Of a stretch of 64,000 bases of DNA, positions 1 through 64,000 are shown piece after piece. Numbering within the stretch: position 1 is the stretch's first letter; each line of letters starts with the position of its first letter. Position numbers and translations under genes: made by a program. A model generated the notes under the pieces. That model was not told the origin of the DNA. It saw only the letters and a program-made list of their open reading frames with translations, and did not search any database. Origin of the DNA: a virus; IMG/VR virus record IMGVR_UViG_3300023179_000074, positions 14,320-78,319 of that record; one strand, 5' to 3'.

Positions 1-642
1 AAAAAAATTTATCTTGTCCCTATAAACTAGTCCATCCATTCTTCCAGTATAATTATTATTGATAAATTTATATTTGTTAAGATCTAACCCCGGGGTGCCT
101 CTCCAAGGCCCAGACGATCGAATCGGTGCAATAGTTTCAAGTAAATCAAAAATTTTAGCCCTATCATCATTATGTGAGCCCTGTACTATACTACAAAAAT
201 ATTTTTTGTCCGTTATTATTTTTTCAGGATCTTTAGGTTCAACCAACCAATTAAAGGGTGTATCAAATATTCTGCTTTCATCAAAAAGTGTCCAGCAATC
301 TAATACACATGTAGGGAATCTTAGATATCTAGGATGGTCTATTTCTTCTACCCCTAAAACATAATTTTTATCAGATTCATTTAAAATACCATAATAATCT
401 TTAAAAATTTCTCCGGATATAAAAATCTTTTTACAGTTTTTATACATTCCTATTTCTTTATAATTGTCTCTTAAAAAATCATCGTAATCATTAACATTTG
501 CGTGAAGATTGGTCCATAAAACTATATCCGGGGTTTTTCCATCAGGAATAACATGATATTTTTTATTTAAAACAAATCTAAAATAATTAATCCATGAATA
601 CATTTGAAAAAAGTTTGCTCTTGAAAGTCTAACTAATTTCAT
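1..642 (-). CDS. Glycosyltransferase family 10 (alpha-1,3-fucosyltransferase-like), 3' end runs off the window; not in the ORF track
   Basis: Manual translation from ATG 642: MKLVRLSRANFF...KKYFCSIVQGSHNDDRAKIFDLLETIAPIRSSGPW...RDKINF, resembling the GT10 C-terminal FCS...R..F..L...SG motif; TAAATA lies 6 nt upstream. Confidence 0.65.
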   Translation of the reverse strand, partial: MKLVRLSRANFFQMYSWINYFRFVLNKKYHVIPDGKTPDIVLWTNLHANVNDYDDFLRDNYKEIGMYKNCKKIFISGEIFKDYYGILNESDKNYVLGVEEIDHPRYLRFPTCVLDCWTLFDESRIFDTPFNWLVEPKDPEKIITDKKYFCSIVQGSHNDDRAKIFDLLETIAPIRSSGPWRGTPGLDLNKYKFINNNYTGRMDGLVYRDKINFF

Positions 643-681
643 AAAAAGTATTTACAAAAAAAAATAAATTAATCAATATTA

Positions 682-1314
682 TTAGGTAATCTGTCTAAAA
701 TACTCGTTAATCAACTCTCCATCACTTCTGAACGGTATTCCTTTACCAAATATATAAGAAGGTATTTCATTTTCCCAAAATATACATAGCTCTTTTCCTT
801 TATAGTTGTTTCTTATTTGTTCTGAATTTTTATTCGTTTCAATAAATGAATATTTTGGAAACAAAAATAAGTTATCTTCTTTTACATCAAAAATAGTCTT
901 GTGATGTGAGTTACCTAGAAAATTATTACCATTTAAATAATTAAATTCATCATATTTTGAAGGAATGGCAATAAATCCTCGTTTAGATATTTTTTGAAGA
1001 AGTTCAATTAAATCTAAAGGATTAAACACATCTTCAAGAGTATGTGAACATATAGTAAAATCAAAAATTCCATTATTTTTTACGTAATCAAAAATAGAGT
1101 TATACTGATTTTTATTTTCAATATCAATTTCAAATTGTAAAACGTCGGGTTTGTTAATTTTTATTGAATCTGCTATTATTTTACACTCCGGATAAGACCA
1201 GTAATAAGCTGCAGCACCTATATCGATAGATTTAAAATTGTTAGTTTCTATTATTTTTTTAACTCTATTTCTTATTCCATCTATATCATTATTATAAAAC
1301 CATTCAGTAATCAC
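682..1314 (-). CDS. Class I SAM-dependent methyltransferase-like protein
   Basis: SIDIGAA (motif I) and FDFTICSHTLED (motif typical of Methyltransf_11/23); GTG start 5 nt after TAAATA. Confidence 0.65.
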   Translation of the reverse strand: MITEWFYNNDIDGIRNRVKKIIETNNFKSIDIGAAAYYWSYPECKIIADSIKINKPDVLQFEIDIENKNQYNSIFDYVKNNGIFDFTICSHTLEDVFNPLDLIELLQKISKRGFIAIPSKYDEFNYLNGNNFLGNSHHKTIFDVKEDNLFLFPKYSFIETNKNSEQIRNNYKGKELCIFWENEIPSYIFGKGIPFRSDGELINEYFRQIT

Positions 1315-1325
1315 AGAATTATTTA

Positions 1326-2603
1326 TTAACTTACTCTATTACCAATAACACCAGTGATAGGTTCTGCCCATCCTTTAGAAAGACTGTGCGGCCATACTAT
1401 CCAGCTATGAGGCATCTTCTCACTATTAAATTCTCTCCAAACCTTACAATAACCATCCGGGTCTTTCATCATTCTATCAATTTCTTCTTTATCTGCATCT
1501 TTGCGATATATATCTTGGCCTTTTTCATCTTTAAAAGCAACACACCAGAAATTATAGTCTTTCTCAGGCACTTGATCATAACGAATATCTATGCAATGTT
1601 TAAAAATGCTTAGTAAAGAATCTTCAAACTCTTCTTCCGAAAGATTGTCATTAGGATTTGGTGCATATTTATTTTCTAAAGTGTGTCTTTGAATAGCCCT
1701 CTTCTTAAAGCAAAGACCGGAGTAGCGTTCATAATCTCTTAGGGTTCGCTCTTTACCGAAGTCAAATTTTCCAAAATCAATATCTTTCTTTTCATTGTCC
1801 ATTTCAAATAATTTTCTATTACGAAGATGTGATTTATTATTCATTTCACCCCATAGAGGAATATCATCCCAGTGTTTTGTACGGCCTTTACGAGTGTATT
1901 CATGCCACATAACAACTATATGAGGATGGAATAAATCGTACCCGTGTGTGTAAGATCTTACTGCTAAATTAATCTCTTCTCCATGAAAATAATAATACGG
2001 GTCATAGGGTACCTCTTTAATCCATTTACCAAGCGTAAAGATAAAATGGGCAGATACAAAGCGAGCGGGTACCGGGCAGCTTAATTCTTTATACTCATCA
2101 ATAGATGCGGGTAAAAAAAATACAGCGCCTTCGGGAATAAATCTATCAAAATTCATTTTCCATGGAACGTTAATTCTTGCTTGTGGATCATTATCCGGAT
2201 CAAAACTTGAAATGTAGGCTGTAAGAAGAGGTTTTTTGTGACCTTTTTTCTGTAACTGCTTAATCATATCAATACACTTAACATCCCAATTTTGTGCAAA
2301 ACGGTGATGACTGTCTAATTGAAGATGGTACTTTTCGTTTTTATAAAGAGATTGAATTTTATTTCTAGCCCAGCATGTGCCTTGACTTTCTTTATAAGGA
2401 ATATCTAGTACGCGAAAACGTTTATCTGTAGTAAATTCTTCTAAAGATTCCTTTTCATCTCTTTGCCAAGCAATTCCAAATCTTAAATTTTCAGGATATT
2501 TTGCATTCTTAATACAATCTCTTAAAGTAGGTAATAGCTGAGGATCCCTATAAGAAGCAATTGATATAAAAATAGTATTTTTTGAGTTAATCTCTTTGGT
2601 CAT
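1326..2603 (-). CDS. GT60-like polypeptide N-acetylhexosaminyltransferase (Gnt1/Skp1 GlcNAc-T family)
   Basis: IFISIASYRDP, GTCWAR, LQLDSHHRF (DxH) and YFHGEE motifs characteristic of the GT60 / Pfam GlcNAc family. Confidence 0.8.
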   Translation of the reverse strand: MTKEINSKNTIFISIASYRDPQLLPTLRDCIKNAKYPENLRFGIAWQRDEKESLEEFTTDKRFRVLDIPYKESQGTCWARNKIQSLYKNEKYHLQLDSHHRFAQNWDVKCIDMIKQLQKKGHKKPLLTAYISSFDPDNDPQARINVPWKMNFDRFIPEGAVFFLPASIDEYKELSCPVPARFVSAHFIFTLGKWIKEVPYDPYYYFHGEEINLAVRSYTHGYDLFHPHIVVMWHEYTRKGRTKHWDDIPLWGEMNNKSHLRNRKLFEMDNEKKDIDFGKFDFGKERTLRDYERYSGLCFKKRAIQRHTLENKYAPNPNDNLSEEEFEDSLLSIFKHCIDIRYDQVPEKDYNFWCVAFKDEKGQDIYRKDADKEEIDRMMKDPDGYCKVWREFNSEKMPHSWIVWPHSLSKGWAEPITGVIGNRVS

Positions 2604-2609
2604 TGTTAT

Positions 2610-2637
2610 ATTTTATAAGACTATTAAAAAAAATCAA
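2610..2637 (-). promoter_or_regulatory. Sigma70-type promoter of the GT60 gene
   Basis: TTGATT-N16-TAAAAT-N6-ATG. Confidence 0.7.
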
Positions 2638-8200: not shown

Positions 8201-8431
8201 GGTAGTAAGTTCCTGTACTTCGCGTTGAATATTTTTAACCTCATACCAGTTATTAAGATAAGACTGATATCTAGAAAGAAAATCTTCTGAACTAGTGAAC
8301 AAACTATTATTATACTTTAACCATTGTTGAAAGGTAAGTGGTTCAATGAAATCTATAGGATTTGTAGGGGGGACTAAAGAAGTTATTGATACTGAAAGTC
8401 TTTCGTCAATAAATCTACTAGAGCGTAACAT
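5291..8431 (-). CDS. Large virion structural protein (baseplate/tail-associated)
   Basis: 1046 aa, Asn/Ser/aromatic-rich, downstream of baseplate wedge genes, TAAATA 5 nt before ATG. Confidence 0.5.
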   Translation of the reverse strand: MLRSSRFIDERLSVSITSLVPPTNPIDFIEPLTFQQWLKYNNSLFTSSEDFLSRYQSYLNNWYEVKNIQREVQELTTRSLYTELINEIVLNYTTSDEKRFLKNIDFNNNRDLAVAVPFFAEKIKEICLYYSTLRDDVKTGVTRYNLKGSNFGIQKLIYNEISKSLETEDLTDFIKNLNLSLSSIRNNMVIDVEDLYDTYTNYLDTSFNFNFSSYDTQSGLLKDYFNLNQYNIDPNLFLNFNYSIVNAITSYPFYLIELGNNNFSISPTVNSSNLSFLKDSDFINTVNNNNSNNLNLNLNKELIQKYIGTDFYYLSTGNTSNQFLSGLLFTANNEFANYINKRFPSVAAVPSEEFLRTSKDIGLFFKPDKIGFSNFSNFGLTVTINRDSLSANTIYIFPDPQKFENVSGLTEEEFTSPLTFLENNYFNKIDFSNQFLFGDSETSSYFQTFRPYQTREQSLNYSNQGLSRYTDPQDFFKSDLKNIWSNEDIYPKIPSNLFPIDNRLEKLYSLNKTLVQLKSDIYGNEFSLYKDVHPLKQASNIRGDQNLDIFFCLLLDGHVLNDSISGANFDYTTIDADKGYSGIILKTTDNIPPGSGYYTQGSSFISPSPLSGIAYNNGTPTFALTSITYPVVSYRFYPESFCPSYVQLTFLCNVYDGVTFTVEGVPLTDYSSDDPGYNPEDGSLYYNILIDAGLNKNGPSFRANFVYSGDFLFTPPASAITIYDGTYFLVNSAEPCGNDLEFNISYDEKSLYLDYHIPQRDTKVIEGLSGLDRKRSLYQVKYLDYGELYYRNSNSSIIIPASAALSGMYTKYNDGINNELKNKLINFDLYYDTIQFDTENYLVFDKIIFDYENNIIINRSRNDCFFLRGDYKKLEKISTVWFDETDNVLFFCKTILFHELSATNYKIIYPEIYTVNIDTLAYNKIYPLESSNTLTFEHLRLFSLSGNSINVNIVEIDKPLFNYNDDTGQYCISYLGRDISNVFYIFKTIFKYVNGKIINITNTMYKLAPDVDSVNFSNTLSSSFLTYNILGNNPGYVSNGAFVFGI

Positions 8432-8439
8432 TTAAATAT

Positions 8440-10905
8440 TTAATTGTTATATACGATGTCGCTAGCACTTAATATCAATCTAAGACCTTTAGTCAACTCA
8501 TAATTTATTAAACTATCCATTATTCCATTTGTTTTGGTCCATTCTTTAAATGAACTGTTTGTAAAGTTAATGGTGGTAAACGGTGATTCCCAGTCAATTA
8601 TATTATTAAAGTAATTATCGTTATAAACATCAACAAATTCATAAAATTTATAAAAATCACTAATTCTTGAGCCAGACAACTTTCCTGGTATAACCAAACT
8701 CCAACCCCAACTGCTATTAAACGATGAAAGAGGTATAACATCACCGTAGCTATACCCTTGTATAGTTATGCTATTAACTAACGAGTATAGCCCTGAAAAT
8801 GTCTCATACGCGACTACTGGGTAACCGGCTGTAATATATGAAGTTTTAGTAGAGAGTTCAGAACCTCTATTCTTTGCATAATTATCATTAAATTGTGTAC
8901 CTTTTTTACTAAAATCTAAATTAAATCTATTTCTATTTCCCCATAAATTAGAATGTTTTATTGATAAAATATTTACTAATCTCGTTAGTTGAGGTGGAAA
9001 GGGATAGTTGTATTGTTCGAACTGTATAGACAGTTCTTTACAAAAAGAAATTAATGCGTCAAGATTACATTTATCAATATCTGATTTATTACTCACAAAG
9101 TTTGCTATTTTTTCATATACTGTTTTACCTAATTCGTAGGGCTGTGCGGTAATACCTCCTACTATTGTACCTATAAAACTATTAAAAAGATTAAATTTAT
9201 CTTCTAAAACTTCACTGAAAATTAACGACTTATAAAACCCAGCTGCATCAAAATTTTCATTTACTTTACTAATGCTATATTGACCTGAGAGAGGTAATAT
9301 ATTAAAGAAATTGCTTTCACCGGTTATAGTTCTTACTAGTGTTGTAGGTATCATTCGCTTATTAATCCATCTTGTGCCTAACCAGTCACCGTAAGCTTGA
9401 AAGCTACGCTCAGCGAATGTGCTTAAAATATTTGTAGGTGATTCACCGGGTAGAATTAAATCAACACTATTTAAATAATTTACACTACTTACTTTAGGTG
9501 CTAAGGTATCTATAAAATATAATTTTTGATCAAAGTTATTTAAAATCCATAAGAAATCATTTGTATCACTTGCTAGTCCGCCTATACTTCCTATATAACT
9601 TGTAGAGTTAGCTGAACCTGCAATATAATTTGATGTACTACCATTTACACCATCAATTCTTGTTATAGTATCTCTATCTTGCGCAACCCATAAATTTTGA
9701 AACATATCTGTTGTTGCATTATGAATAAATTTAAATCCTGATATAGGATATCCAGAAGATAAATCCCCACGAGTATTAAATTTATAAACATAGTCATTTC
9801 TACCTGATAGGGTATATCCAGAAGCGGCTAAATTATATGCTGTTACCCATACGTTTTTATTTCTATCAATAATAATTTCTGCGGGTGAATGAAGAGGTAT
9901 AAATGGTACAACACAAAGCAACGAACCGTATGTACTATATTTTGCAATAAAACCGCAAACCGGGTGTGTATATGAAACCCATATATCATTATTAAAATCT
10001 GAATCTATACTTACGGGGTATACAAGATTTTCTCCAGCAAACCCGCTCAAAAACGGTAAGTGGTAATCTCCACTAAGAAAATAACATATATTTGTTACAT
10101 CTGGATATGCATTTGAAAGCATGTAGCCGGATTTACCATCTATTTTAATACTTGAAACAGCATCAGCTAAGCAAAACCATAAATTATTTTCTCCATCTAA
10201 AGTAATAGATGCAGGGGCAGCGCTACTTAAAATTGGATTAAGTAGGTTTACATATTCTTTAATACCAGTGTTAGGGTTTATATATGGGTAAGCAGAAAGA
10301 GTGAAAGATGAGAGAAGTACACCCTCAGCGGTAAATTTAATTAATGAATCTCTCGAACCATCAGCAAACCACGCTTGATAATCTTCTCCTATACCTGCGC
10401 CGGAGGGAGCAACTTGAATTGCATATACATTTCTATTATTATAGTTATAAACAAAATTTTTAGCGGCAGATATACTTAGAGTCACCCCACCTAAGCAGGA
10501 GCCATAAATTTGTTCTCTAAATAATCTTACTAAAACATCATACTGAGGTACTGCTGCCCATCCGATGAAGGTATCTTTAGGATAATTAATCGGGTCCTTA
10601 ACTGTCATTCTAGCAGTTAATTGCAAGTTGTAAGTAGGTTCATTAACTATAAAATAACCTTTAAAAAACGCACCGATACTTCTAGGTATTTCATCGTTAA
10701 AATCATCAAAAAATTGTACCCCGGTGACCGGATAAAAATTACTACCTTCTTTTCTTTGTAGACCAAAGTTTACATTAAAAGATGTTAGTCCAGATAAAGA
10801 AGAATCCGTAACAGATGAATAGATTGGAGGGTAGGTTTTTGTTGTAAAATTATCCGCATCTTTCATTTTAATAAGAAAAGGAATTTCAGTATTTTGCCAA
10901 CTCAA
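8440..10905 (-). CDS. C-terminal part of a baseplate-associated protein with NHL/beta-propeller repeats; probably joined to 10902-11900 by a frameshift
   Basis: Repeats such as ITLDGENNLW, SIDSDFNNDIW, IIDRNKNVW; weak TTG start with no promoter; frame stays open upstream to 10947. Confidence 0.55.
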   Translation of the reverse strand: MSWQNTEIPFLIKMKDADNFTTKTYPPIYSSVTDSSLSGLTSFNVNFGLQRKEGSNFYPVTGVQFFDDFNDEIPRSIGAFFKGYFIVNEPTYNLQLTARMTVKDPINYPKDTFIGWAAVPQYDVLVRLFREQIYGSCLGGVTLSISAAKNFVYNYNNRNVYAIQVAPSGAGIGEDYQAWFADGSRDSLIKFTAEGVLLSSFTLSAYPYINPNTGIKEYVNLLNPILSSAAPASITLDGENNLWFCLADAVSSIKIDGKSGYMLSNAYPDVTNICYFLSGDYHLPFLSGFAGENLVYPVSIDSDFNNDIWVSYTHPVCGFIAKYSTYGSLLCVVPFIPLHSPAEIIIDRNKNVWVTAYNLAASGYTLSGRNDYVYKFNTRGDLSSGYPISGFKFIHNATTDMFQNLWVAQDRDTITRIDGVNGSTSNYIAGSANSTSYIGSIGGLASDTNDFLWILNNFDQKLYFIDTLAPKVSSVNYLNSVDLILPGESPTNILSTFAERSFQAYGDWLGTRWINKRMIPTTLVRTITGESNFFNILPLSGQYSISKVNENFDAAGFYKSLIFSEVLEDKFNLFNSFIGTIVGGITAQPYELGKTVYEKIANFVSNKSDIDKCNLDALISFCKELSIQFEQYNYPFPPQLTRLVNILSIKHSNLWGNRNRFNLDFSKKGTQFNDNYAKNRGSELSTKTSYITAGYPVVAYETFSGLYSLVNSITIQGYSYGDVIPLSSFNSSWGWSLVIPGKLSGSRISDFYKFYEFVDVYNDNYFNNIIDWESPFTTINFTNSSFKEWTKTNGIMDSLINYELTKGLRLILSASDIVYNN

Positions 10906-11900: not shown

Positions 11901-13759
11901 TAATACTCCTTAGTTAGTGATGTTATAGAAGGCGTAATTATTCTTATCTTATTTGCAAAATCAAGAGAATTATTAAGAAATGGGTATTTAAAGTAAGGCA
12001 GTTGATAATCTTGTGTTGTTACAGTTATATCTTTTTCGGGATATACGGGATTATAAACTACTAAACAAACTCCTGGGATTGTAATTGTTGTATCACCTTC
12101 AATTCTTTTAGTATTAATATCAATAATTCCGGATTCAGGAATTGCTAAAATTTGATTGGTAATTTCGGTAATATTTATTACAGATCCTAAATTGTCTCTT
12201 AGAGTAGAAAAATAATTTCTAAAAATTTTCGTAATTTGATCTTTTAATGCTTCTGGGTTTCTTTTAGAAGTAATGTCACGTGAGATTTCTAGAAAACTGT
12301 TGTCTGAAATACTGGGTGATAAAGGCTCTCCAGGAAAATTAGTACCTATATCTACAGCTACATAGACGGGATCATTAACTATAATTTCAGAAGTGGTTAC
12401 TTTTACTTTTTGCAAGTCATTTAATATAAGTTGTTTTTGCGCGGAGTTTAAATAGCTACCTCTGGTTGTGAGTGATGTGAGTTTTTCGAGCTTAGGTACA
12501 GCATACAAATATATATTATTAAAATTACAAGAGTCAGCAAATTTTACTTGATTAAAAAGAACTCTACTTTCGAGATTAGGCCTAGAAACACCCAAATCAA
12601 AGTAATATTTTAAATGACCTGAAATATAATCCCAATTATTTACCGCTTTAACAGACGAAATAATATTACTGTAGTTTTTACTTACATAATTTATAAAATC
12701 TTCAGCGGTTATAAGCCTATATTGACTTCTAAATGTATTGGATGCATTGTTTTTTATGTTCGATACGGATTCTCTAGGTATATAAGTTGTACTCGCATCT
12801 ATATTACTAAACTCTATATTATTAACTTGCTGTGTAGTAATAATATTAAGATTTTCTGGTGTTGTATCGGTTCGAATGGTATTAAATCTTGTTGTGTTAT
12901 AGAAAAACATTTTATTATTGTTTAGTAACCCGGGACCTACTTCACCGATAACACCATTGGTCTTTAAATAATATATTGCAACTTCATCACCGGGATTTAA
13001 CTGCTTTCCAGTTACGTTATTACCAAATCTTATTTCATATCTCTCATTTTCGTTTAATCTAATTTCATAAACTTCAGAGTTACTTCTTTCTAAAAATAAA
13101 GACTGGACAGGCGACCATTTAGACCACTTAGGACTATCAACCGTATTATCTTTTACGTAAACATCTATATTAAAATGATCAATAGGTACGTTTTGGCCTG
13201 TAGCGTCAACCACAGTAAGGGTTAATGTTTCGAAAGGCTCACCTACTCCAACATAAATAGGATATTCTGAATATATACCTTGATATAATAGATTATTATC
13301 TTGAAGATCGGTTAAAATTTCAGTATCACTAGAATTTTTTATAAACGTAACGTCTTTATTAAAGCTATAATTTGTACCGTTTATAGAAAAATATGAATAT
13401 CTCGGAATCGTATATGTGTTAGGTGGTAGAGAAGCATTAGCTTGTGCTAAAAAAGAAAGTATAGCAGTTTGATTGCCTACGGGATTATAATTTAAAATTT
13501 TTACTATTTTGTTTACGTTTTCAAATAATTCAGCAGTAGTAAAGGTGCTTTCAGAACCAGTTCTATTAAGATAAAATAAGAGAACATGATATGCATAAGC
13601 AATAATATCTATTAAGGAAGAAAGATTACTACCTTCAAAGTTTTGATCAGTAAAAAAATTATTAGAGTTTAATCGAGTAATTATTAGACTCTTTAAGCTT
13701 TGTGCATCAAACGCAACATAGCTATCTTTCTCTAAAGTAAAATCGTTAAATTCAGCCAT
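11900..13759 (-). CDS. Baseplate wedge subunit, T4 gp6-like
   Basis: FTDQNFEGSNLSSLIDIIAY, YEIRFGNNVTGK and QYRLITAEDF motifs; adjacent to gp25. Confidence 0.85.
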   Translation of the reverse strand: MAEFNDFTLEKDSYVAFDAQSLKSLIITRLNSNNFFTDQNFEGSNLSSLIDIIAYAYHVLLFYLNRTGSESTFTTAELFENVNKIVKILNYNPVGNQTAILSFLAQANASLPPNTYTIPRYSYFSINGTNYSFNKDVTFIKNSSDTEILTDLQDNNLLYQGIYSEYPIYVGVGEPFETLTLTVVDATGQNVPIDHFNIDVYVKDNTVDSPKWSKWSPVQSLFLERSNSEVYEIRLNENERYEIRFGNNVTGKQLNPGDEVAIYYLKTNGVIGEVGPGLLNNNKMFFYNTTRFNTIRTDTTPENLNIITTQQVNNIEFSNIDASTTYIPRESVSNIKNNASNTFRSQYRLITAEDFINYVSKNYSNIISSVKAVNNWDYISGHLKYYFDLGVSRPNLESRVLFNQVKFADSCNFNNIYLYAVPKLEKLTSLTTRGSYLNSAQKQLILNDLQKVKVTTSEIIVNDPVYVAVDIGTNFPGEPLSPSISDNSFLEISRDITSKRNPEALKDQITKIFRNYFSTLRDNLGSVINITEITNQILAIPESGIIDINTKRIEGDTTITIPGVCLVVYNPVYPEKDITVTTQDYQLPYFKYPFLNNSLDFANKIRIITPSITSLTKEY

Positions 13760-50788: not shown

Positions 50789-50816
50789 ATTATAGTAACA
50801 AAAATATAAAGTACAA
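50789..50816 (-). promoter_or_regulatory. Sigma70-type promoter of the DNA polymerase gene
   Basis: TTGTAC-N16-TATAAT-N6-ATG. Confidence 0.8.
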
Positions 50817-50996: not shown

Positions 50997-52204
50997 TTTA
51001 TATTGTTAATAGCGTTCAAAAGTTTTCTTTGGGGGTCAGCATATGAAAAATTATAAAGCTCGTAATATTTGTTAATATTATCTTCAGTTTCTAACCATCG
51101 ACTCTCAGCAACTTTTCTTGCCTTAGCGCATATATTCATATATTTGCCTTTTTTCTCTAATGTTTCTTCTACTCTTCCAATCATTTCATCGCCCGTCTTA
51201 AACTTAATAGGAGCATCTTCATACGTACACATATCTTGACAAGCAATAGGAAGACCATAACAGCTGGCTTCTATATATTTTAGATCACTTTTAGCCCTAT
51301 TAAACGTATTATCTTGAAGAGGTGCAACTAACATATTAGCGTTTAAATTAAAAATTTTCTCTGGATAATGATATAAATTAGCCCAGGGATGAAATTCGAA
51401 CGTACCATTCATAACATATGGTCTTAAAGGTAAAGGAAATGCACCTAGGAATACCCACTGAAACTTGTCTTTTGTCCTAACAATAGCATCCAGAACATGA
51501 CGAAAATCGTCGTTTTGATTTACACGATTATCGACATCAAAGTGAGCGCCTGATCCTGCGTATAGAATTCTAGGCTTAGACTTATACTTATCATAATTAT
51601 CAGAAATACGCTTTTCGTTGTAAAAATGGCCCATCCACCACTTTGGTGGGTAATTAGGTATTACTGTAACATTCTTATTATTAGTTTTGCTTTGATAATA
51701 TTCTTTCATGAAATTACATGTGACAGTAATTTCATCGCATAGCTCCATAATTGTCTGAGCAGTTCTGCGTATTTCTGGATCTGTAAATGCTGGTTTAAAT
51801 TTATTATACTCTGGTATATCTTCACTAAAGACCAAGTCATCAATTTCATAGATTAATCTAAATCCTATTTTAGAACTAAGTTCTTTTAAAAACTGAACAA
51901 ATTTTAATTGCTGCACCGTTGCTTGTCTTTGTATTCTAATAGTTTTTACGCCTCTATAATAATTTGGGTCAAAGCACATAACTGTGCTACCGTGAACTAC
52001 CATTTTATTATGAGCATTTAAAAGATGCTCTGGCCATATCAAACGCCAAAATCCGCACCCACTATAATCAGCATAATAATTTAAGCTACGATTTAAATCT
52101 AATTCTGGAGGGTGGGGTAAAGATTCTTGTGGTCCGGGTTGAAATGTGGGGAATGGTGATACAAAAGGCGAAGTAAAGGGCTGTACAAACGGAGATGCAA
52201 TCAT
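50993..52204 (-). CDS. GT-B (GT4-like) glycosyltransferase
   Basis: GCGFWR..WP, YEIDDL, VIPN, APLQDNTFNRAKSDLKYIE. Confidence 0.75.
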   Translation of the reverse strand: MIASPFVQPFTSPFVSPFPTFQPGPQESLPHPPELDLNRSLNYYADYSGCGFWRLIWPEHLLNAHNKMVVHGSTVMCFDPNYYRGVKTIRIQRQATVQQLKFVQFLKELSSKIGFRLIYEIDDLVFSEDIPEYNKFKPAFTDPEIRRTAQTIMELCDEITVTCNFMKEYYQSKTNNKNVTVIPNYPPKWWMGHFYNEKRISDNYDKYKSKPRILYAGSGAHFDVDNRVNQNDDFRHVLDAIVRTKDKFQWVFLGAFPLPLRPYVMNGTFEFHPWANLYHYPEKIFNLNANMLVAPLQDNTFNRAKSDLKYIEASCYGLPIACQDMCTYEDAPIKFKTGDEMIGRVEETLEKKGKYMNICAKARKVAESRWLETEDNINKYYELYNFSYADPQRKLLNAINNIK

Positions 52205-52216
52205 TAGTTTAATTTA

Positions 52217-54025
52217 TTAATTATATTCTTTATAATCAACTCTTTTAGTAATGCCGTTAGTTTTTTCAAGAAAAATAATCTCTCCGGTTGCAGCTTTGAT
52301 GCTTTCTTTACGATGGCTAATTACCATAATACATTCATTAAATTTATCTACACGTTCTTTTAAAATACTAATAACTAATTCTACACCTTTTTCATCTAAA
52401 CTAGAATCAAACAATTCATCATAGATGCTAAAATTAAATGAAACGTCGCCTTGAAGTCTTCTGATATCCATGAATGTAAAGAGACACGCTAAATCAATAT
52501 TTTTACGCTCTGCGCCACTAAAATTAAAATAAGAACATTCTTTACCCTTATTATCAATAATTTGTTCTTCAAAATACTCATTAAATATACAAGTACAATT
52601 AGCATCCATCTTCTTTAAATAATAAGCTAGCTTATTGTTGAATAGCTGAAGAATCTTCTTCACAATATATGACTTTACGCCTTCCTCAGAAATAACAAAT
52701 TTAACTATATCTAAAATATGCATTTGTTCTTTTAGCTGTTCAACTTTTACTTTTGTATTGTTGAGGTGTGTTTGCTGTTCTTGAATAAGTGCATCAAAAG
52801 CATTATTATCTTTCTCTATATCCTTGAGGTCTTGCTCAAGCTCCAATTGCCATTTATGTAATTGCTCTAAGCGAGCTAGGAGTGAATTTTTTTCATTAAC
52901 TTTATGTTTATAGCTACTAACCTCTTCTCTATATTTTTGAATCTTATTTTGAATTTTTTCTTGAATATCAATAAACTGTTTGACTTCTTTATTATGCAAT
53001 TCAATACTCTTTTCGTCTGTTGTAATATCGTTTTTAAGTTTTTTAACTTCTTCATGAATATGATTACGATCCTTATCGTGAATAGATCTTAAGCATGTCG
53101 GACAAACGTCTTCATCGGTACCAATAGTTCCAAGTTTTTTTGTAGTTTGTGTTATAAGTGTCTTTTTTTCTGAAATTAAATGTCTTATTTCTTGCAATTT
53201 TTTATCTACTTTTTCAGTATTAATTTCCTGTTCTGAGATTTGTTTGTTTAATAAATCGACATCTGGAAGTACAAAGCTAGTTAATTTTTTGTCTATATCA
53301 TTAATCTCTTTCTTATTATTTGAAAAACGGAATGAATATTTTTCCTTTTTAGCTTGTCTTTCCAGCTGCATATTTTCTTTTTGTTTTTCTAAAGTATTAA
53401 TATTTTTTTGAATCTCATCTTGACGCGCTCCTTCTATATCGAATATTTTTTTTGCTTCGTTAACATCTGTCTTAAGAAGCGTCGACATATCACTGAAAAC
53501 TCTTAAATTAAAAATATCTTCAATAAACTTTCTCTTTTCTTGCTTCTTTTTAGCCATAAAAGGTATAGTATTATTCACAGTCATAATAACACAGTTTTGA
53601 AATAATTCTGGTGAACTGTTAAACTTTTGCATAATAACACTATTAGTATTAGTAATGCTATCTCTTGTCTTATCCTCACCGTTAACATAAAGATAGCATT
53701 TAGAAGGCTCAAGAGTTCTTATAATTTGTATATTTTCCTGTAGATCTAGGGTTTTAATTGCTACATCTAAAATGACTTCGCAGCTTTTTCTGTTAACATT
53801 ATTAATAATATTTTCTTTTTTAAGCTCCCTCAATGTATCGCCGAAAACTGCAAAATATATAGCGTCGGCGACGGTCGATTTACCCACGCCGTTTCTTCTA
53901 TCCTCCTTATCACGATTAAGACCAGTAATAATATTAAGACCCTTTTTAAAATCTATTACTACCGGTTGATTACCAACAGATAAAAAGTTCTTAATACTAA
54001 TTTTCTTAAAAATTACTTGCTTCAT
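52217..54025 (-). CDS. Recombination endonuclease ATPase subunit gp46 (Rad50/SbcC-like)
   Basis: KNFLSVGN, NGVGKS, CPTC zinc hook, FSGAE, YDELFDSSLD, ISH; start refined to 54025 (ATGA overlap). Confidence 0.93.
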   Translation of the reverse strand: MKQVIFKKISIKNFLSVGNQPVVIDFKKGLNIITGLNRDKEDRRNGVGKSTVADAIYFAVFGDTLRELKKENIINNVNRKSCEVILDVAIKTLDLQENIQIIRTLEPSKCYLYVNGEDKTRDSITNTNSVIMQKFNSSPELFQNCVIMTVNNTIPFMAKKKQEKRKFIEDIFNLRVFSDMSTLLKTDVNEAKKIFDIEGARQDEIQKNINTLEKQKENMQLERQAKKEKYSFRFSNNKKEINDIDKKLTSFVLPDVDLLNKQISEQEINTEKVDKKLQEIRHLISEKKTLITQTTKKLGTIGTDEDVCPTCLRSIHDKDRNHIHEEVKKLKNDITTDEKSIELHNKEVKQFIDIQEKIQNKIQKYREEVSSYKHKVNEKNSLLARLEQLHKWQLELEQDLKDIEKDNNAFDALIQEQQTHLNNTKVKVEQLKEQMHILDIVKFVISEEGVKSYIVKKILQLFNNKLAYYLKKMDANCTCIFNEYFEEQIIDNKGKECSYFNFSGAERKNIDLACLFTFMDIRRLQGDVSFNFSIYDELFDSSLDEKGVELVISILKERVDKFNECIMVISHRKESIKAATGEIIFLEKTNGITKRVDYKEYN

Positions 54026-55095
54026 ACAGTCGACACTGCTTTCTTGTATAATTGATTGCAATATCTAGAAACTTCTTGTTTTTTATCTATATCTAGGATA
54101 TTAATAAATTCATCAATAGTTTTTTGCATATCGACACCGGAGAGATCAACATTCGAATCCTCATTAATAGAGATTGAATTGTCAAATAAAGAATAATCTA
54201 CAGAAATAGTAAATGGCTTATAAGCAGATAATTTTTGAAGAAGTATATCTATATTATCACTATTAATTTTCTTATCTACAATAAGCTTAACTGTATTATT
54301 GTTAATAAGCTTTTCAAGTTCTGATTTATCACTAATCTTTTTTTCTGTAATTTCAGAAAGTAGTATTTTTTTATGTTTTGGAGAGACGGGGTTATTAAAA
54401 AAGTTATATTCTAGCTTAGAAATATCGAGTATGTAGTATCCTTTTGTTGAATCTATATCACCGAAATCCATCTCAAACGGGTTGCCCACATAAACTATAG
54501 TTTTTTTATCATACTGTCTTTCATCCCTTAGGTGAAAGTGACCAGTCATAATTAAATTACCTCTTTCAAGTAAATCTTGCGTTTTAATGCCGTGATCACA
54601 ATGCTTGTGTGAATTCATCTTAAAACTTTCAATTTCAAAATGTCCAAAAATAATATCAGATTTTTCTATTTTCTTTACTTCTGTTCCCCACGGGATAAAA
54701 CTACATTTTTTACCATATAAAATAGACATAATAGGCTCACTTACAACGGTAATATTACGCCATCCATTTAAAATGGATAATGAATTGACATCTGCTCGAT
54801 CTTTATAAAAAGAATCATGATTACCAACGATAACAACAATATTAAATTCTTTCCATAGATTAAGAATTTCATTAACAATATGTATTGTGTTTACAGCTAT
54901 CTCATCTCTATAATGATAGAGATCACCGAGAATAAAAATATCCTTAATATTTTTTTGAATTAGCTCTTCTTTTAGCCATCTCGCCCATGTTAAAGATGTT
55001 TCATGCCAAAAAATACTATTTTGATGAACCCCGATGTGAAGATCAGCAATACAGCAAACATTATTAGAAGTTAAATTTATTTCAACATTTTTCAC
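54022..55095 (-). CDS. Recombination endonuclease nuclease subunit gp47 (Mre11/SbcD-like)
   Basis: DLHIG, GDLYH, GNHD, GHFH. Confidence 0.93.
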   Translation of the reverse strand: MKNVEINLTSNNVCCIADLHIGVHQNSIFWHETSLTWARWLKEELIQKNIKDIFILGDLYHYRDEIAVNTIHIVNEILNLWKEFNIVVIVGNHDSFYKDRADVNSLSILNGWRNITVVSEPIMSILYGKKCSFIPWGTEVKKIEKSDIIFGHFEIESFKMNSHKHCDHGIKTQDLLERGNLIMTGHFHLRDERQYDKKTIVYVGNPFEMDFGDIDSTKGYYILDISKLEYNFFNNPVSPKHKKILLSEITEKKISDKSELEKLINNNTVKLIVDKKINSDNIDILLQKLSAYKPFTISVDYSLFDNSISINEDSNVDLSGVDMQKTIDEFINILDIDKKQEVSRYCNQLYKKAVSTV

Positions 55096-55694
55096 TGAAT
55101 AGAATTATAATTATCCTCGTCATTCCCACAAGCGGATGGCTCAACATAAATATGTGCTCCGCCCATTTTTTCCGGATCTATCATATGATCGGTATACACT
55201 TTTTCCTTATACTCATTCAAGACTTCATGATGCTTGTTTTCTTTTTTAATTCTATTGATAAAAGCATGAAAGGCAATTGTTGTAAAGTAAGAGAACGGGC
55301 TAAACCCAGTATCAAGTTTAAATTTTTTATTTCTTAACGCGGAGAACATCTTAACAATAGCATCGCCGATCATATCATCTTTATAAGAATAGTTAATAAA
55401 ATTGGGAGCGTAACTTAAGCCATTAGCAATTTTAGTCAAACTCTCTCCTAATTTTTGAGTAATATGACCTGTCTTATAGTACGATCTAATTTCCTCTTCA
55501 AATTCTTTACCATTAACGTAGTGTATCTTTTCTTTACCCTTGGGTTGCTTTTCAGTTGTCTTATTCTGAGTAAGCAGTTTATTTAGCGCTGAATCTGTAG
55601 GATCTTCTTTCTTGACACGTCTAGCCCCTTTCATTATAGGAGTTTTAGATTTCTTGTATTTTTTTGATGTTATAATTGATTTTTTCTTTTTCAT
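55092..55694 (-). CDS. Late-transcription sigma factor gp55
   Basis: HYVN.KEF, IANGLSYAPNFINYSYKDDMIGDA, PFSYFTTIAFHAFINRIKKE; upstream of gp47 as in T4. Confidence 0.9.
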   Translation of the reverse strand: MKKKKSIITSKKYKKSKTPIMKGARRVKKEDPTDSALNKLLTQNKTTEKQPKGKEKIHYVNGKEFEEEIRSYYKTGHITQKLGESLTKIANGLSYAPNFINYSYKDDMIGDAIVKMFSALRNKKFKLDTGFSPFSYFTTIAFHAFINRIKKENKHHEVLNEYKEKVYTDHMIDPEKMGGAHIYVEPSACGNDEDNYNSIQ

Positions 55695-57114: not shown

Positions 57115-57503
57115 GTAGTTTCTAATTTAATAATGTCAACAAGGTTTTTTAAATCAAATGATGCTGAGCTAAGTGTTTTTTCGGATTTCTCTAACAACTC
57201 AACAATTAATTCAAGTTCTTTTATTTTACTATTAATTTCAACAAATTCACTGTGCTTTTCAGCAGTTCTTTCAATAACTGGAGTTGCTAGCTTTACCGGG
57301 CTTTGCTCTTGAATTTTTTCAACTATATTTTTCTTTATAACATCTTTTTTTCTTTGAAGATCAATAAGTTCTAGTTTATGTCTAACACATCTGCCAGCCC
57401 ATTTATGCTTAATACCAGGTAATTTAAGTTGATAATCTTTAAGACAAAGCTCATCAATTTTTAAATCATTTTCAAGCTCTTTTATATAGTCATCTAGAAG
57501 CAT
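57111..57503 (-). CDS. uvsY: Recombination mediator UvsY
   Basis: ENDLKID...LPGIKHKW...SFDLKNLVDIIK; adjacent to uvsW. Confidence 0.75.
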   Translation of the reverse strand: MLLDDYIKELENDLKIDELCLKDYQLKLPGIKHKWAGRCVRHKLELIDLQRKKDVIKKNIVEKIQEQSPVKLATPVIERTAEKHSEFVEINSKIKELELIVELLEKSEKTLSSASFDLKNLVDIIKLETT

Positions 57504-57528
57504 TTATTAAATAATAGTATAAATCACT

Positions 57529-57792
57529 ATGAAATCAAATAATTTATTTGCAGAGAGGTTTTTAAAAATAATCTCTGAAGATAATGTCTCTGGGGGCTCG
57601 GGTAGTGTGTTCGGAGGGGGCACAGCAACAGCACCAGGTAATACCGGAAATCAATTCCCTTCACAAAACGATTTAGCCTATGCCCCGGGTGATGCAAGAG
57701 TTCAGTTCCCTTTAGGGGCAACGGGTACGAGAAAAAAGAAAAAGAAAAAAAATAAATCAATATTTCAAAAAAGAAAATTTTCAGGTTTATAA
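57529..57792 (+). CDS. Small hypothetical protein
   Basis: N-terminus FAERFLKIISED, Gly-rich middle, poly-Lys tail; TAATG overlap with the next gene. Confidence 0.55.
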   Translation: MKSNNLFAERFLKIISEDNVSGGSGSVFGGGTATAPGNTGNQFPSQNDLAYAPGDARVQFPLGATGTRKKKKKKNKSIFQKRKFSGL

Positions 57793-58202
57793 TGGATCTA
57801 GGGCATTGGAGTTTAAGTGATGGTTTAGAATTTGTAACTGAGGCATTTGGATTTATTTACGAAATAAAAAATAACGTGACTAATAAAAAATATATTGGTA
57901 AAAAACAATGTATTTCAAAAATTAAAAAAGCACCTTTAAAGGGTAGAAAGAACAAAAGAATTACTCTAAAAGAATCAGATTGGAAAGAATACACAAGCTC
58001 TTCAGCTGAACTCAACAATGATATTATAAAATATGGAAAAGAAAACTTTACATTTAAAATATTAAGATTTTGTAATTCAAAATGGGAGTTAGCATACTAT
58101 GAAATAAAAGAACAAATAGAAAAAGAGGTTTTATTTAAAGAGGAATATTATAACGGTATTATTAATGTACGTATAGGCAGGCCTCCAAAAAAATTGTCTT
58201 GA
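57792..58202 (+). CDS. GIY-YIG nuclease-domain protein
   Basis: GFIYEIKN...KKYIGKK...ESDWKEY.SS...YYNG. Confidence 0.85.
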   Translation: MDLGHWSLSDGLEFVTEAFGFIYEIKNNVTNKKYIGKKQCISKIKKAPLKGRKNKRITLKESDWKEYTSSSAELNNDIIKYGKENFTFKILRFCNSKWELAYYEIKEQIEKEVLFKEEYYNGIINVRIGRPPKKLS

Positions 58203-58232
58203 TTGCTTGGGTTTTTTATCTTATACTATATT

Positions 58233-58799
58233 GTGATTGAAAAAATAGAACTTAAGTCTAACAATATAATAATTCATAATTTCGAAAGTATTTTTTTAGA
58301 AAAAATAGATATAAAACTTTTAAATGAACTTCATAGTTATAATTTGCTAAAAGAAAGAATTAATAGTGATGCGAGAAAATTCTTTTTTCATTTTATTTTT
58401 TTTGAAACTTGTGAATATCTATTAAATTTAAAAAATAAAGAAAAAAATATAATTTACTTTGATTATAAACAGATTAATAAACCTTATCATATTTTAAAAC
58501 ATTTTAAAGAAGAAGAAGTTATTAAAAATATTTACAGTATTATTTTAAAAATGATTCGTTTATTGCCCATTAGAATATATGCGTCAAAGTATTCGTTTGA
58601 CTATTTTAATCATCTACTAGGAAAAAATGATGGAAAAGCTAGAGAAACACTTAACTTTATAAAGCATAGTATAAATTTAACAACCTTCGAAAAGTATACA
58701 TTTGCAAAATTAAAAAGATTTACATTTAAAAATAATCTTGTTTTTTTAAATCAAACATATTTTAACCAATTAAAAACCAAGCAACTTCTCATTAATTAA
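58233..58799 (+). CDS. Hypothetical protein
   Basis: Start refined to GTG 58233 (TTGATT-N17-TATACT-N5-GTG). Confidence 0.55.
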   Translation: MIEKIELKSNNIIIHNFESIFLEKIDIKLLNELHSYNLLKERINSDARKFFFHFIFFETCEYLLNLKNKEKNIIYFDYKQINKPYHILKHFKEEEVIKNIYSIILKMIRLLPIRIYASKYSFDYFNHLLGKNDGKARETLNFIKHSINLTTFEKYTFAKLKRFTFKNNLVFLNQTYFNQLKTKQLLIN

Positions 58800-58815
58800 T
58801 TAAATAAATAATATT

Positions 58816-59253
58816 ATGGCATTTCATGATATTTTAAATCGTTATTCCAAGTTAATTAACGAGCAGGAACCGGTACCTGCAGATGCTGCAGCTCCTGCCC
58901 CGCAAGCTGCTCAGCCTCAAGAACTTCCAAAGAATGAGCCAACTGCTGTGCCCCCTGAAGGGTATGTTGATATGGTAAGATTACTAGCTAAAGCTTTGAT
59001 AATGAATGTACCGTCTGGCTCGGTTGATGCATTATTTTCCCAGCCTATAACAAAAGAAAATGCTGTAGCTGTAAGAGAGGGCTTACAAAATGCCATAAAC
59101 ACAAGCGAAACTTTTGAGGACAATCCTCAAAGATTAGAGAATACTCATTACAGGGAATTTGCAAATTCTATTAATGAAAATAACTTTATGTTCAAATATA
59201 AACAAATTCTTTCCATGATGAAGAAATATAGTAATGATCCAAAACTATCATGA
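58816..59253 (+). CDS. Late hypothetical protein, possibly an internal head protein
   Basis: TAAATA-N5-ATG; MAFHDIL...LINEQ followed by a Pro/Ala linker. Confidence 0.55.
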   Translation: MAFHDILNRYSKLINEQEPVPADAAAPAPQAAQPQELPKNEPTAVPPEGYVDMVRLLAKALIMNVPSGSVDALFSQPITKENAVAVREGLQNAINTSETFEDNPQRLENTHYREFANSINENNFMFKYKQILSMMKKYSNDPKLS

Positions 59254-62520: not shown

Positions 62521-63075
62521 TTATTTTTTTTCTAGTAAAATTATTGTTTCTAAGAGCACTTTTTCCAAAACTTCTCTAGATTCTTTCTTTAAAGTAGATC
62601 TTAATAGCTTAAGAATATTATCACTACCATTAGAAATAGCGTTAGTTAAAGTTTCTTCATTATTTTCCTCTACTTCAGAGAGACCGGAGCTATTCAATGC
62701 GCTTTCATAGTCTTCATAACCGAATGCTGATTCTAGTTGATCATGAGCATTAGTTATTTTGCTTAAAACCCAGGCTTCTACATTATCTTTGTTATTTAAT
62801 AAATCATGTAACATTGCAGAAAGTTTATGAATTCTAAATAGAAGCTGTCTAGACATCCTGCTATTACTATCGTAAGTTGCTGCATCGAATCCTTCACAAT
62901 CTTCATTTTTTTCTTCATTTTCACCTTTCATACAAGTGCGTTGAGGTACTTTTATCTTCTGAATCTGAGAAGGGCTCGGTAAAACGTCCTCATTATCACC
63001 ATGAGGACCAACATTCATTTCATTTATTTTATTAGAATAAATTTCATTTAAAAGGTGATAGTCTTTTGCAAACAT
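62521..63075 (-). CDS. Late hypothetical protein
   Basis: Start refined to ATG 63075 (TAAATA-N5); VEAWVLSKIT motif. Confidence 0.55.
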   Translation of the reverse strand: MFAKDYHLLNEIYSNKINEMNVGPHGDNEDVLPSPSQIQKIKVPQRTCMKGENEEKNEDCEGFDAATYDSNSRMSRQLLFRIHKLSAMLHDLLNNKDNVEAWVLSKITNAHDQLESAFGYEDYESALNSSGLSEVEENNEETLTNAISNGSDNILKLLRSTLKKESREVLEKVLLETIILLEKK

Positions 63076-63107
63076 ATAAATATTTATTAAAAACATTAAA
63101 TATTTTT

Positions 63108-63395
63108 ATGTTATTTGAAAGAGCGTTTATTAATCAATTAGAACACGATATAATAGAAGAAAAGAAAAATTCTAGATGTACAAAGGTCACAGGCCAACAA
63201 TCATCAACAAGATCAGACAAAAAATATATGAGATGCGCAAGAGTTAACGGTAAACTCAAAAGAGTGCATTATGGTGATCCAAAATTAAGAATAAAAAAAT
63301 CAAATTCAAAAAAAAGAAAATCATTTAGAGCAAGACATAAGTGTAGTTCTGCAAAACCCGGTACACCGAAATACTACAGTTGTAAGAATTGGTAA
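63108..63395 (+). CDS. Small basic late protein (FGDP...SFRARHKC type)
   Basis: Start refined to ATG 63108 (TAAATA-N5); VHYGDP...RKSFRARHKC...YYSCKNW. Confidence 0.65.
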   Translation: MLFERAFINQLEHDIIEEKKNSRCTKVTGQQSSTRSDKKYMRCARVNGKLKRVHYGDPKLRIKKSNSKKRKSFRARHKCSSAKPGTPKYYSCKNW

Positions 63396-63781
63396 TCTTT
63401 ACCTGTAGAATAAAAAACTCTCTTAAAATTAAGTTGATCTAAGAGAGATGTACAGCCCTCACACGGTTTTGAAAGATCTAATTTATGATTTCTATTAATA
63501 CGAGTATTGACTAATGTAAATCTTGAACAATCCTCATCTCCTAATTTTAGGATAGCAGACAATTCACTATGTACGCCTATAGTATCTGAAATATCCTCTC
63601 CTCTTCTATTAAAAAAACCTATTTTTAAATTTTTTGGATGGGTTTTATTGGGATTATTAAATCCTATAGAAATTAATCTATTTTTATGAAAAATAAATGA
63701 AAAATGCTTGCAACGATAATTACCATGCTTCTTTAAAAGAGCATACGAAATTTCTGTACATTTCTTAAATATATTATCCAT
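63374..63781 (-). CDS. Zinc-dependent cytidine/dCMP deaminase-fold protein
   Basis: VHSE...SKPCEGC (HxE...PCxxC). Confidence 0.8.
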   Translation of the reverse strand: MDNIFKKCTEISYALLKKHGNYRCKHFSFIFHKNRLISIGFNNPNKTHPKNLKIGFFNRRGEDISDTIGVHSELSAILKLGDEDCSRFTLVNTRINRNHKLDLSKPCEGCTSLLDQLNFKRVFYSTGKDYQFLQL

Positions 63782-63828
63782 ACTAACATGTTAAATGAAA
63801 AGATAATTAAAATCAATAAATATCTTAT

Positions 63829-64000
63829 ATGGAACCTTTTAAGGATTTTTTCAAAAGACCAATTTTCGGCGTTACCGAAATTATTGATATTAATGGTATT
63901 GGAAGGCTTAAGGCAAAAATTGATAGTGGTAATGAAGCTTATAATGTTTTGCATGGGGTGGATATCTCTGAAGACGGTGAAAATATTTCTTTTACTACCG
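63829..64000 (+). CDS. Retropepsin-like protease (RimK-associated / Zn_protease type), partial; not in the ORF track
   Basis: MEPFKDFFKRPIFGVTEIIDINGIGRLKAKIDSGNEAYNVLHG with the AKID(T/S)G motif; TAAATA-N6-ATG. Confidence 0.7.
   Translation, partial: MEPFKDFFKRPIFGVTEIIDINGIGRLKAKIDSGNEAYNVLHGVDISEDGENISFTT

Follow-up and report, generated by a model that had tools for sequence, protein, structure and literature searches.

Promoters abutting start codons in an uncultured freshwater T4-like phage suggest widespread leaderless mRNAs

Introduction

Where does a phage message begin when its promoter leaves no room for a leader? The question is raised by the window analysed here, a 64,000-nucleotide (nt) stretch comprising bases 14320–78319 of a single 78,319-bp viral contig (IMG/VR record IMGVR_UViG_3300023179_000074; estimated to be ~36% complete). 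In this DNA, which belongs to a T4-like phage, the hexamer TAAATA lies only a few nucleotides before many start codons. We found that the starts of 37 of the 71 genes are directly abutted by a promoter element, 24 of them by a TAAATA box (class L, late) and 13 by a −35/−10 promoter (class E, early/middle). Judging from the sequence, most messages of this phage probably begin on the AUG or GUG itself and are leaderless; we give this reading a probability of about 0.75.

The late promoter of T4 consists of the box TATAAATA at positions −13 to −6, with an AT-rich segment downstream and no −35 element (PMC2988020). Late transcription in T4 depends on the sigma factor gp55, the co-activator gp33 and the sliding clamp gp45 (PMC2988020, PMC7892883).

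TAAATA boxes at start codons

A preliminary description of the window had listed 26 start codons preceded at 5–7 nt by TAAATA, and all 26 were confirmed on the correct strand (Table 1). The spacer is 5 nt long (N5) at 16 sites, 6 nt (N6) at nine and 7 nt (N7) at one (45039), and the start codon is ATG in 21 cases and GTG in five (1314, 14246, 25544, 26473 and 35560). As gene starts, 24 of the sites stood, each heading a gene call; the other two did not, 32050 being internal and in frame, and 63829 lying in an open reading frame (ORF) cut by the window end. Nineteen of the 24 gene-heading sites are the first ATG, GTG or TTG after the upstream in-frame stop, and five are later in-frame starts (14246, 30017, 38719, 63075 and 63108). 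These five, together with 63829, are the starts at which the box corrects the ORF track, as had been proposed. Three further box sites are found in the 14 kb of the contig preceding the window.

The predicted positional enrichment was found as well. TAAATA-N5/6-(A/G)TG occurs 32 times window-wide, compared to 9.5 ± 3.1 times in 300 dinucleotide shuffles. When the spacer length k is varied from 0 to 25, TAAATA-Nk-ATG is found 13 times at k=5, 12 times at k=6 and 0–5 times at every other value; with GTG, there are six cases at k=5. The box stands at N5/6 before 23 of 72 gene starts; when each 40-nt upstream region was shuffled locally 2000 times, the mean was 0.57 and the maximum 5. The offsets peak sharply (15 at 5, eight at 6, at most one at any other). 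In a genome with a GC content of 31%, where TAAATA occurs 168 times in the window, such a pattern might be ascribed to chance or to the choice of starts. This explanation is hardly credible, since it has to accommodate the excess both at gene starts and globally, the 19 sites that are the first start of their frame, and a layout that hundreds of relatives share; it is refuted by the shuffles and by the footprints in orthologues. Furthermore, TAAATA is depleted in the window overall (168 occurrences versus 219 ± 13 expected), so the positional peak is not an effect of AT-richness. The depletion would fit selection against stray promoters.

The consensus of the L class is aTAAATAnTTnt directly before (A/G)TG, with no −35 element. 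Only the 6-bp core TAAATA is invariant; at 13 of 24 sites it is preceded by A, the next position upstream shows no bias towards T, and beyond that the base counts are flat and nothing is conserved. Downstream of the box, the second and third positions are T in 79% and 75% of the promoter sites versus 39% and 35% of the 144 other TAAATA sites, and the 5 nt after the box are 86% AT compared to 73%. In relatives, 864 kb of sequence around tail tube orthologues contains 209 cases of TAAATA-N5-ATG and 173 of TAAATA-N6-ATG, with 6–72 at other spacings, and in the upstream regions of L-gene orthologues the box and its spacing are largely kept while the flanks vary freely. At 32712, a terminator (a GC-rich hairpin and T8) is followed three bases later by box-N5-ATG, both here and in relatives. 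A variant box, TAAGTA-N5-ATG, stands before 21834 (minus strand) and, in relatives, before the orthologues of 21834 and 20498; it is possibly a weaker late promoter.

Genes of the virion region, among them those for sheath, tube and baseplate, are preceded by L boxes, and often each gene has one. The suggestion that even abundant virion proteins have their own box was borne out: sheath, tube and the four genes that follow each carry one.

A second promoter class with the same placement

The preliminary description had treated the layout as a feature of late transcription. This part was correct for the box class, but the layout is not specifically late, as 13 early/middle starts are abutted by σ70-like −35/−10 promoters. 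The E pattern is TTGnnn (mostly TTGATT), a spacer of 15–17 nt and TAnnnT (mostly TATAAT), ending 5–7 nt before ATG or GTG. It is found at 13 of 71 genes, where 0.66 are expected, and almost all of these genes function in replication, recombination or nucleotide metabolism; they include those for the DNA polymerase, UvsX, gp32, primase, the clamp, the dUTPase/clamp loader and the UvsY-helicase-gp55-gp47-gp46 operon. Upstream of ORFs of 50 or more amino acids (aa), TATAAT stands before the start codon eight times at N6 and 0–2 times at other spacings. Because a −35 element at a fixed distance cannot be a translation signal, the geometry is that of a promoter. A scan of 20 kb with the generic σ70 consensus showed no enrichment (99 hits versus 98.5 in shuffles), so what makes the E class significant is solely its placement with respect to start codons. 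Promoters of the Bacteroidota type have the −7 element TAnnTTTG as their consensus; this element is present in none of the 13 E sites, which rules them out.

The two promoter classes partition by function, L with the virion region and E with replication. The E class also corrects two starts: 58233, and that of the dUTPase, which is 16330 rather than 16363, in agreement with a PHROG match that covers the longer form only from residue 25 onwards. The DNA polymerase gene starts with ATG here and with GTG in 33 of 53 distinct orthologue upstream regions, in all cases directly behind the −10 element.

Table 1. Promoter sites, terminator and selected genes of the window. Start, first base of the start codon; kept, retained in the upstream regions of orthologues.
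Feature	Start	Coordinates	Strand	Remarks
L, TAAATA-N6-ATG	642	640-654	-	
L, TAAATA-N5-GTG	1314	1312-1325	-	
L, TAAATA-N5-ATG	8431	8429-8442	-	1046-aa protein
L, TAAATA-N6-ATG	13759	13757-13771	-	baseplate wedge
L, TAAATA-N5-GTG	14246	14244-14257	-	gp25-like; replaces ORF start 14264
L, TAAATA-N6-ATG	14317	14305-14319	+	divergent from 14246
L, TAAATA-N5-ATG	16379	16368-16381	+	
L, TAAATA-N6-ATG	23906	23904-23918	-	kept in 4/4 (distinct)
L, TAAATA-N6-ATG	24682	24680-24694	-	baseplate hub-like; within end of upstream gene
L, TAAATA-N5-GTG	25544	25542-25555	-	
L, TAAATA-N5-GTG	26473	26471-26484	-	box, N5 and GTG kept in 46/48 (distinct)
L, TAAATA-N5-ATG	27048	27046-27059	-	tail tube; box at N5/6 in 35/36 (distinct)
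L, TAAATA-N6-ATG	29367	29365-29379	-	tail sheath
L, TAAATA-N5-ATG	30017	30015-30028	-	tube-like; replaces ORF start 30044
L, TAAATA-N6-ATG	31753	31741-31755	+	
L, TAAATA-N5-ATG	32050	32039-32052	+	internal, in frame, inside gene 31753-32643; conserved in relatives
Intrinsic terminator		32668-32697	+	9-bp GC-rich stem, T8; ends 3 nt before next TAAATA
L, TAAATA-N5-ATG	32712	32701-32714	+	right after terminator
L, TAAATA-N5-GTG	35560	35558-35571	-	back to back with 35583
L, TAAATA-N5-ATG	35583	35572-35585	+	box kept in 12/12
L, TAAATA-N5-ATG	37223	37221-37234	-	
L, TAAATA-N6-ATG	38719	38717-38731	-	or N3 to 38722
L, TAAATA-N7-ATG	45039	45026-45041	+	kept in 21/27 (distinct)
L, TAAATA-N5-ATG	58816	58805-58818	+	first of 4-gene overlapping operon
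L, TAAATA-N5-ATG	63075	63073-63086	-	replaces 63096
L, TAAATA-N5-ATG	63108	63097-63110	+	replaces 63066
L, TAAATA-N6-ATG	63829	63817-63831	+	ORF runs off window
E, TTGATT-N16-TAAAAT-N6-ATG	2603	2601-2637	-	
E, TTGATT-N15-TATAAT-N6-ATG	16330	16328-16363	-	dUTPase, then gp44 clamp loader; replaces TTG 16363
E, TTGCAA-N16-TATAAT-N6-ATG	35165	35163-35199	-	
E, TTGTTT-N17-TATAAT-N5-GTG	36998	36996-37032	-	primase; kept in 8/9
E, TTGATT-N16-TATTAT-N6-ATG	39808	39806-39842	-	sliding clamp; kept in 23/29
E, TTGAAC-N16-TATAAT-N6-ATG	41085	41083-41119	-	gp32, single-stranded DNA-binding protein; kept in 25/43
E, TTGATT-N16-TATAAT-N6-ATG	47747	47745-47781	-	UvsX
E, TTGATT-N16-TAAATT-N6-ATG	48156	48154-48190	-	
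E, TTGTAC-N16-TATAAT-N6-ATG	50782	50780-50816	-	DNA polymerase; kept in 35/53 (distinct)
E, TTGATT-N17-TAAATT-N6-ATG	52204	52202-52239	-	glycosyltransferase
E, TTGATT-N16-TATTAT-N7-ATG	57503	57501-57538	-	operon UvsY, helicase, gp55, gp47, gp46; 17/24 orthologues
E, TTGATT-N17-TATACT-N5-GTG	58233	58199-58235	+	alternative to TTG 58203
E, TTGATT-N17-TAACAT-N6-ATG	63781	63779-63816	-	dCMP deaminase-like
Amidotransferase promoter, TTGAAT-N16-TATAAT		44988-45037	-	then AAGGAGG, 8 nt, ATT-TGC
Class II glutamine amidotransferase gene		44313-44990	-	ATT start
gp55-type late sigma factor gene		55092-55694	-	phrog_234 'late sigma transcription factor', E-value 8e-27; weak Sigma70_r2
Sliding clamp gene (gp45/PCNA fold)		39077-39808	-	243 aa; AlphaFold pLDDT (confidence score) 90.7; Foldseek E-value 1e-13, TM (template modelling) score 0.7-0.8 to PCNAs
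Clamp loader large subunit gene, gp44-like		14922-15851	-	phrog_168, E-value 7e-75
Ribosomal protein bS21 gene		41765-41977	-	PF01165, 38.8 bits (cut-off 27); TTG start

Start codons and translation signals

The box-led starts had been said to leave no room for a Shine-Dalgarno (SD) sequence; this proved correct, and no SD enrichment was detected either. SD-like words at −18 to −5 precede three of 71 genes, compared to two of 71 in a control window, and the spacing between GGAG and ATG is flat in 1.15 Mb of sequence from relatives. The 37 promoter-abutted start codons comprise 30 ATG, seven GTG and no TTG, whereas the other genes include five TTG starts. Such a lack of TTG fits the expectation for messages whose +1 must be a purine and whose 5'-terminal codon pairs with the initiator tRNA. 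About half of the genes have neither promoter, and nearly all of these overlap or abut the upstream gene at ATGA-type junctions; they are probably translated by coupling, that is, by termination and reinitiation.

The amidotransferase gene breaks the rule. It is one of about three SD-led genes in the window and combines a −35/−10 promoter with an SD leader and an ATT start (Table 1); its product, a class II glutamine amidotransferase, requires Cys as residue 2. Across 36 distinct orthologue upstream regions, the AGGAGG leader is present in 19 of 19 with ATT starts, while an SD is absent from 15 of 16 with ATG starts, 11 of those having the −10 element abutting the ATG (Fisher p = 5e-9). A maximum-likelihood tree of 45 orthologues requires at least three changes of layout, two of them forced by well-supported branches. 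This covariation indicates that the host ribosome reads a canonical SD, that the phage uses one only where the start codon cannot serve at the 5' end, and that an abutting promoter can take the place of an SD leader and vice versa.

These observations also bear on the possibility that TAAATA is mainly a translation signal, acting on leadered mRNAs as an enhancer or as a ribosome-binding element other than an SD, as in SD-poor hosts, and perhaps read with the help of the ribosomal protein bS21 that the phage encodes. The A/U-rich box does occupy the position of a ribosome-binding site, and no SD is used. However, it is missing from nearly all operon-internal overlapping genes, which would need a ribosome-binding site most, and in replication genes its position is taken by −35/−10 promoters. 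Besides, the box is the core of a gp55-dependent promoter in a phage that encodes gp55, it directly follows a terminator at 32712, and where the phage needs a canonical AGGAGG, the host ribosome evidently recognises it. We therefore consider a primarily translational role very unlikely.

Transcription and translation of the abutted genes

From the promoter geometry, with the T4 box at −13 to −6, we infer that transcription starts on the start codon. In this register, N5 places +1 on the A or G of the start codon, and N6 places it there or one base before. For a σ70-type −10 element at −12 to −7, N6 places +1 on the first base of the start codon. Likewise, we infer which sigma factor would read which class and how the messages would be translated. 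The L box would be read by host RNA polymerase carrying the gp55-type sigma factor of the phage and would probably be clamp-activated, as in T4; the pattern TTGATT-N16/17-TATAAT-N6-start would give a σ70-type holoenzyme the same placement. Since the gp55 homologue lies in an E-class operon, it would be made before the late genes, as in T4. Approximately 40 transcription units in the 64 kb would thereby yield mRNAs that are leaderless or have leaders of 1–2 nt, to be translated from the 5'-terminal AUG or GUG without an SD. Downstream genes of a unit, which overlap their predecessors, would be reached by termination-reinitiation, and an SD leader would be retained only where a 5'-terminal start fails, as with the AUU of the amidotransferase.

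Several observations weigh against leaderless expression on this scale. The full T4 octamer TATAAATA is present at only three N5 sites. With 144 other TAAATA sites in the window, the hexamer alone is insufficient and further determinants are needed. At the late-region genes 18531, 20132 and 20498, the box lies 8–12 nt upstream, which implies that some leaders are short. Scans of small proteins with the general PHROG and Pfam collections gave no match to gp33 on this contig, which holds ~36% of the genome. Finally, leaderless GUG starts are poorly translated in the model organism E. coli.

Alternatively, TAAATA could be a late promoter whose productive mRNAs are for the most part longer, arising by read-through or initiated upstream and polycistronic. 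The box would then abut start codons as a result of genome compaction, and translation would proceed by coupling, 70S scanning or AU-rich (S1-type) unstructured initiation regions. No terminators are predicted among the six consecutive tail genes from 29367 to 23906, which makes nested read-through transcripts inevitable; at several starts (24682, 38719) the box falls within the final part of the preceding gene, and the boxes 8–12 nt upstream would also be accommodated. Compaction, however, leaves unexplained why the 5–6-nt spacing is fixed and conserved amid variable flanks, why −35/−10 promoters have the identical spacing, why TTG starts are lacking and why ATT with an SD switches to ATG without one. 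Moreover, boxes are retained where intergenic gaps of 20–70 nt would fit a leader. On balance we regard this alternative as unlikely and favour initiation of most messages on the start codon itself.

If the leaderless reading is correct, the sheath, tube and baseplate as well as the replisome would be made from leaderless mRNAs, a type usually deemed minor or inefficient outside a few phyla. The system would make the efficiency of leaderless translation testable, with the phage bS21 as a candidate determinant. It would also constrain the host, which must translate a 5'-terminal AUG or GUG efficiently and yet read AGGAGG and the TTGATT/TATAAT promoter, and would imply that fusion to the coding sequence is compatible with the T4 late-promoter system. 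For annotation, the rule offers a simple and accurate predictor of start codons and promoters in hundreds of uncultured lake phage genomes: in the window it fixes about eight starts and sorts genes into late and early/middle regulons from sequence alone.

Comparison with known systems

The window phage shares with T4 the TAAATA core, the absence of a −35 element, the AT-rich downstream segment, a gp55 homologue, a sliding clamp and a clamp loader. As in T4, the box precedes virion genes on both strands, and gp55 belongs to an early/middle operon with gp46/47. Unlike in T4, the box stands 5–7 nt from the start without an SD, conservation does not extend to the first two bases of the octamer, an individual box is present at nearly every late gene and general PHROG/Pfam scans recognised no gp33. 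The contrast in leaders drawn by the preliminary description is evident in the T4 sequence: in 50 kb, gene-preceding TATAAATA always lies 14–28 nt before the ATG, with GGAG or AGGA in between. The 6-bp box is closer to the shortened boxes of distant T4-like phages than to T4's own.

The cultured T4-like Pelagibacter phage HTVC008M encodes bS21, and in a study of pelagimyophages the standard late-promoter prediction failed (PMC7029224). HTVC008M and the window phage have in common gp55 (44% identical), bS21 and TAAATA-N5-ATG starts, few in the former and many in the latter. Over 50 kb, HTVC008M has mostly the T4 arrangement, with AAGGAG or GGAG SDs and TAAATA 17–28 nt upstream; only three or four N5 cases were found, TAAATA-N5-ATG lying at positions 9761, 35560 and 35831 of the locus. 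Full sharing of the layout by HTVC008M is ruled out, since only a minority of its genes display it. S-PM2 and RM378 showed no N5/6 peak.

In the Thermus phage phiYS40, most middle and late mRNAs are leaderless (Sevostyanova et al. 2007, as cited in PMC3594737), and the phage is thought, according to the same citing account, to adjust host translation, with IF2 up and IF3 down (PMC3594737). phiYS40 resembles the window phage in being a large myovirus of low GC content (~32% in phiYS40) with −10-type promoters beside start codons. In its primary study, phiYS40 is reported to rely on the host sigma factor and extended −10 promoters, with no gp55 box. Unlike the window phage, phiYS40 is outside the T4 superfamily, and its host phylum, Deinococcus-Thermus, is rich in leaderless genes. 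The candidate translation factor is bS21 in the window phage, as opposed to the IF2/IF3 shift in phiYS40. A phiYS40/TMA-like identity of the window is ruled out by its T4-like proteins.

In cells, leaderless genes are marked by a −10 motif adjoining the ORF and by the lack of an SD (Deinococcus-Thermus, PMC12340547; Actinobacteria, PMC4633059; survey, PMC3160421). In Deinococcus, the motif was experimentally shown to be a promoter −10 element requiring a specific distance to the start codon (PMC12340547). The signature in the window is the same, namely TANNNT at a fixed distance of a few nucleotides before ATG or GTG, no SD, and an optional −35 element ~17 bp away. However, cellular leaderless genes use the housekeeping sigma factor, whereas in the window virus the signature extends to two sigma specificities and to the most abundant structural proteins. 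The classic leaderless phage mRNA is that of lambda cI from PRM, where +1 is the A of the AUG and initiation takes place at the 5'-terminal AUG (PMC10491246). While lambda cI is one weakly expressed regulatory gene, the layout in the window phage spans most transcription units, virion genes included. In full-text literature searches, we found no account of T4-like phages in which late genes, or genes across the genome, are expressed from leaderless mRNAs. What is new here is the combination of T4 late promoters with a leaderless architecture, each of which was known separately.

The phage and its candidate factors

By its protein content the phage is a deep-branching T4-like myovirus. The window encodes T4-like virion proteins (tail sheath, tube, baseplate wedge, large terminase and gp25) and proteins of replication and recombination (DNA polymerase gp43, gp41 helicase, UvsX, gp32, gp46/47, UvsY, a helicase and primase), as well as a dUTPase and the gp44 clamp loader; no tRNA genes were found in it. 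The DNA polymerase is only ~30% identical to that of any cultured T4-like phage, and a megablast search of 20 kb against 50,697 phage records returned zero matches, i.e. no cultured relative. Relatives in IMG/VR, on the other hand, number in the hundreds (421 matches to the tube and 106 to UvsX), and near-identical DNA was found across several freshwater, pond and lake metagenomes; among the RNA runs listed, none contained positions 23001–33000 of the window.

The gp55 homologue is 44% identical to the late sigma factor of HTVC008M over 124 aa (E-value 6e-26). It carries a Lys-rich N-terminal extension of ~44 aa that is not present in the HTVC008M protein, and 50 nt of its frame are shared with the upstream helicase gene, so that the true start may be further in. 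The protein encoded at 39077–39808 is, by its predicted fold, a two-domain clamp of the PCNA/gp45 type. It has no PHROG or Pfam match, and the Pfam gp45 models PF09116 and PF02916 were negative on the contig and on four long relatives. The clamp gene is located apart from that of the clamp loader, which lies in the dUTPase operon within the baseplate/tail region.

The TTG start of the bS21 gene overlaps the stop of the upstream gene (TTGA). Inside that gene, 35 nt upstream of bS21, is TAAGTA-N4-ATG (box 42017–42022, ATG 42010–42012, minus strand), and relatives have a perfect TAAATA-N4-ATG at the matching site. Late expression of bS21 may thus proceed by reinitiation after translation of a leaderless message that covers the last 12 in-frame codons of the upstream gene. 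Searched against genome contigs, bS21 gave one match, 37% identical, to a metagenome-assembled genome of candidate division WWE3, which is uninformative on the host; its neighbours in the ESM Atlas are all viral.

A broader scenario, which we put forward tentatively and consider doubtful, would join these elements. An abundant freshwater clade of T4-like phages would have abandoned SD-dependent initiation, with virtually every early and late unit starting on its start codon. bS21, whose gene apparently has a late box upstream, would alter host ribosomes so that the anti-SD is repositioned or sequestered, favouring initiation at 5'-terminal AUGs, giving phage mRNAs priority over SD-led host mRNAs and allowing high synthesis of virion proteins.

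Internal start and shared promoter regions

With a late promoter of its own, the internal start 32050 would give rise to a 197-aa version of the 296-aa protein; T4 genes 17 and 21 have comparable annotated internal starts. The start of the large terminase gene (31741, minus strand) is ambiguous: the first ATG is 11 nt from the divergent gene 31753 and has no box of its own, and in some relatives TAAATA occurs a few codons inside the terminase gene, suggesting a later start.

Back-to-back divergent promoters sharing a few dozen bases are located at 14244–14319, 35558–35585, 44988–45041 and 63073–63110. Between 35560 and 35583, two TAAATA boxes on opposite strands adjoin each other (35566–35571 on the minus strand and 35572–35577 on the plus strand), while at 45039 the spacer of the L box is the reverse complement of TTGAAT, the −35 element of the amidotransferase promoter.

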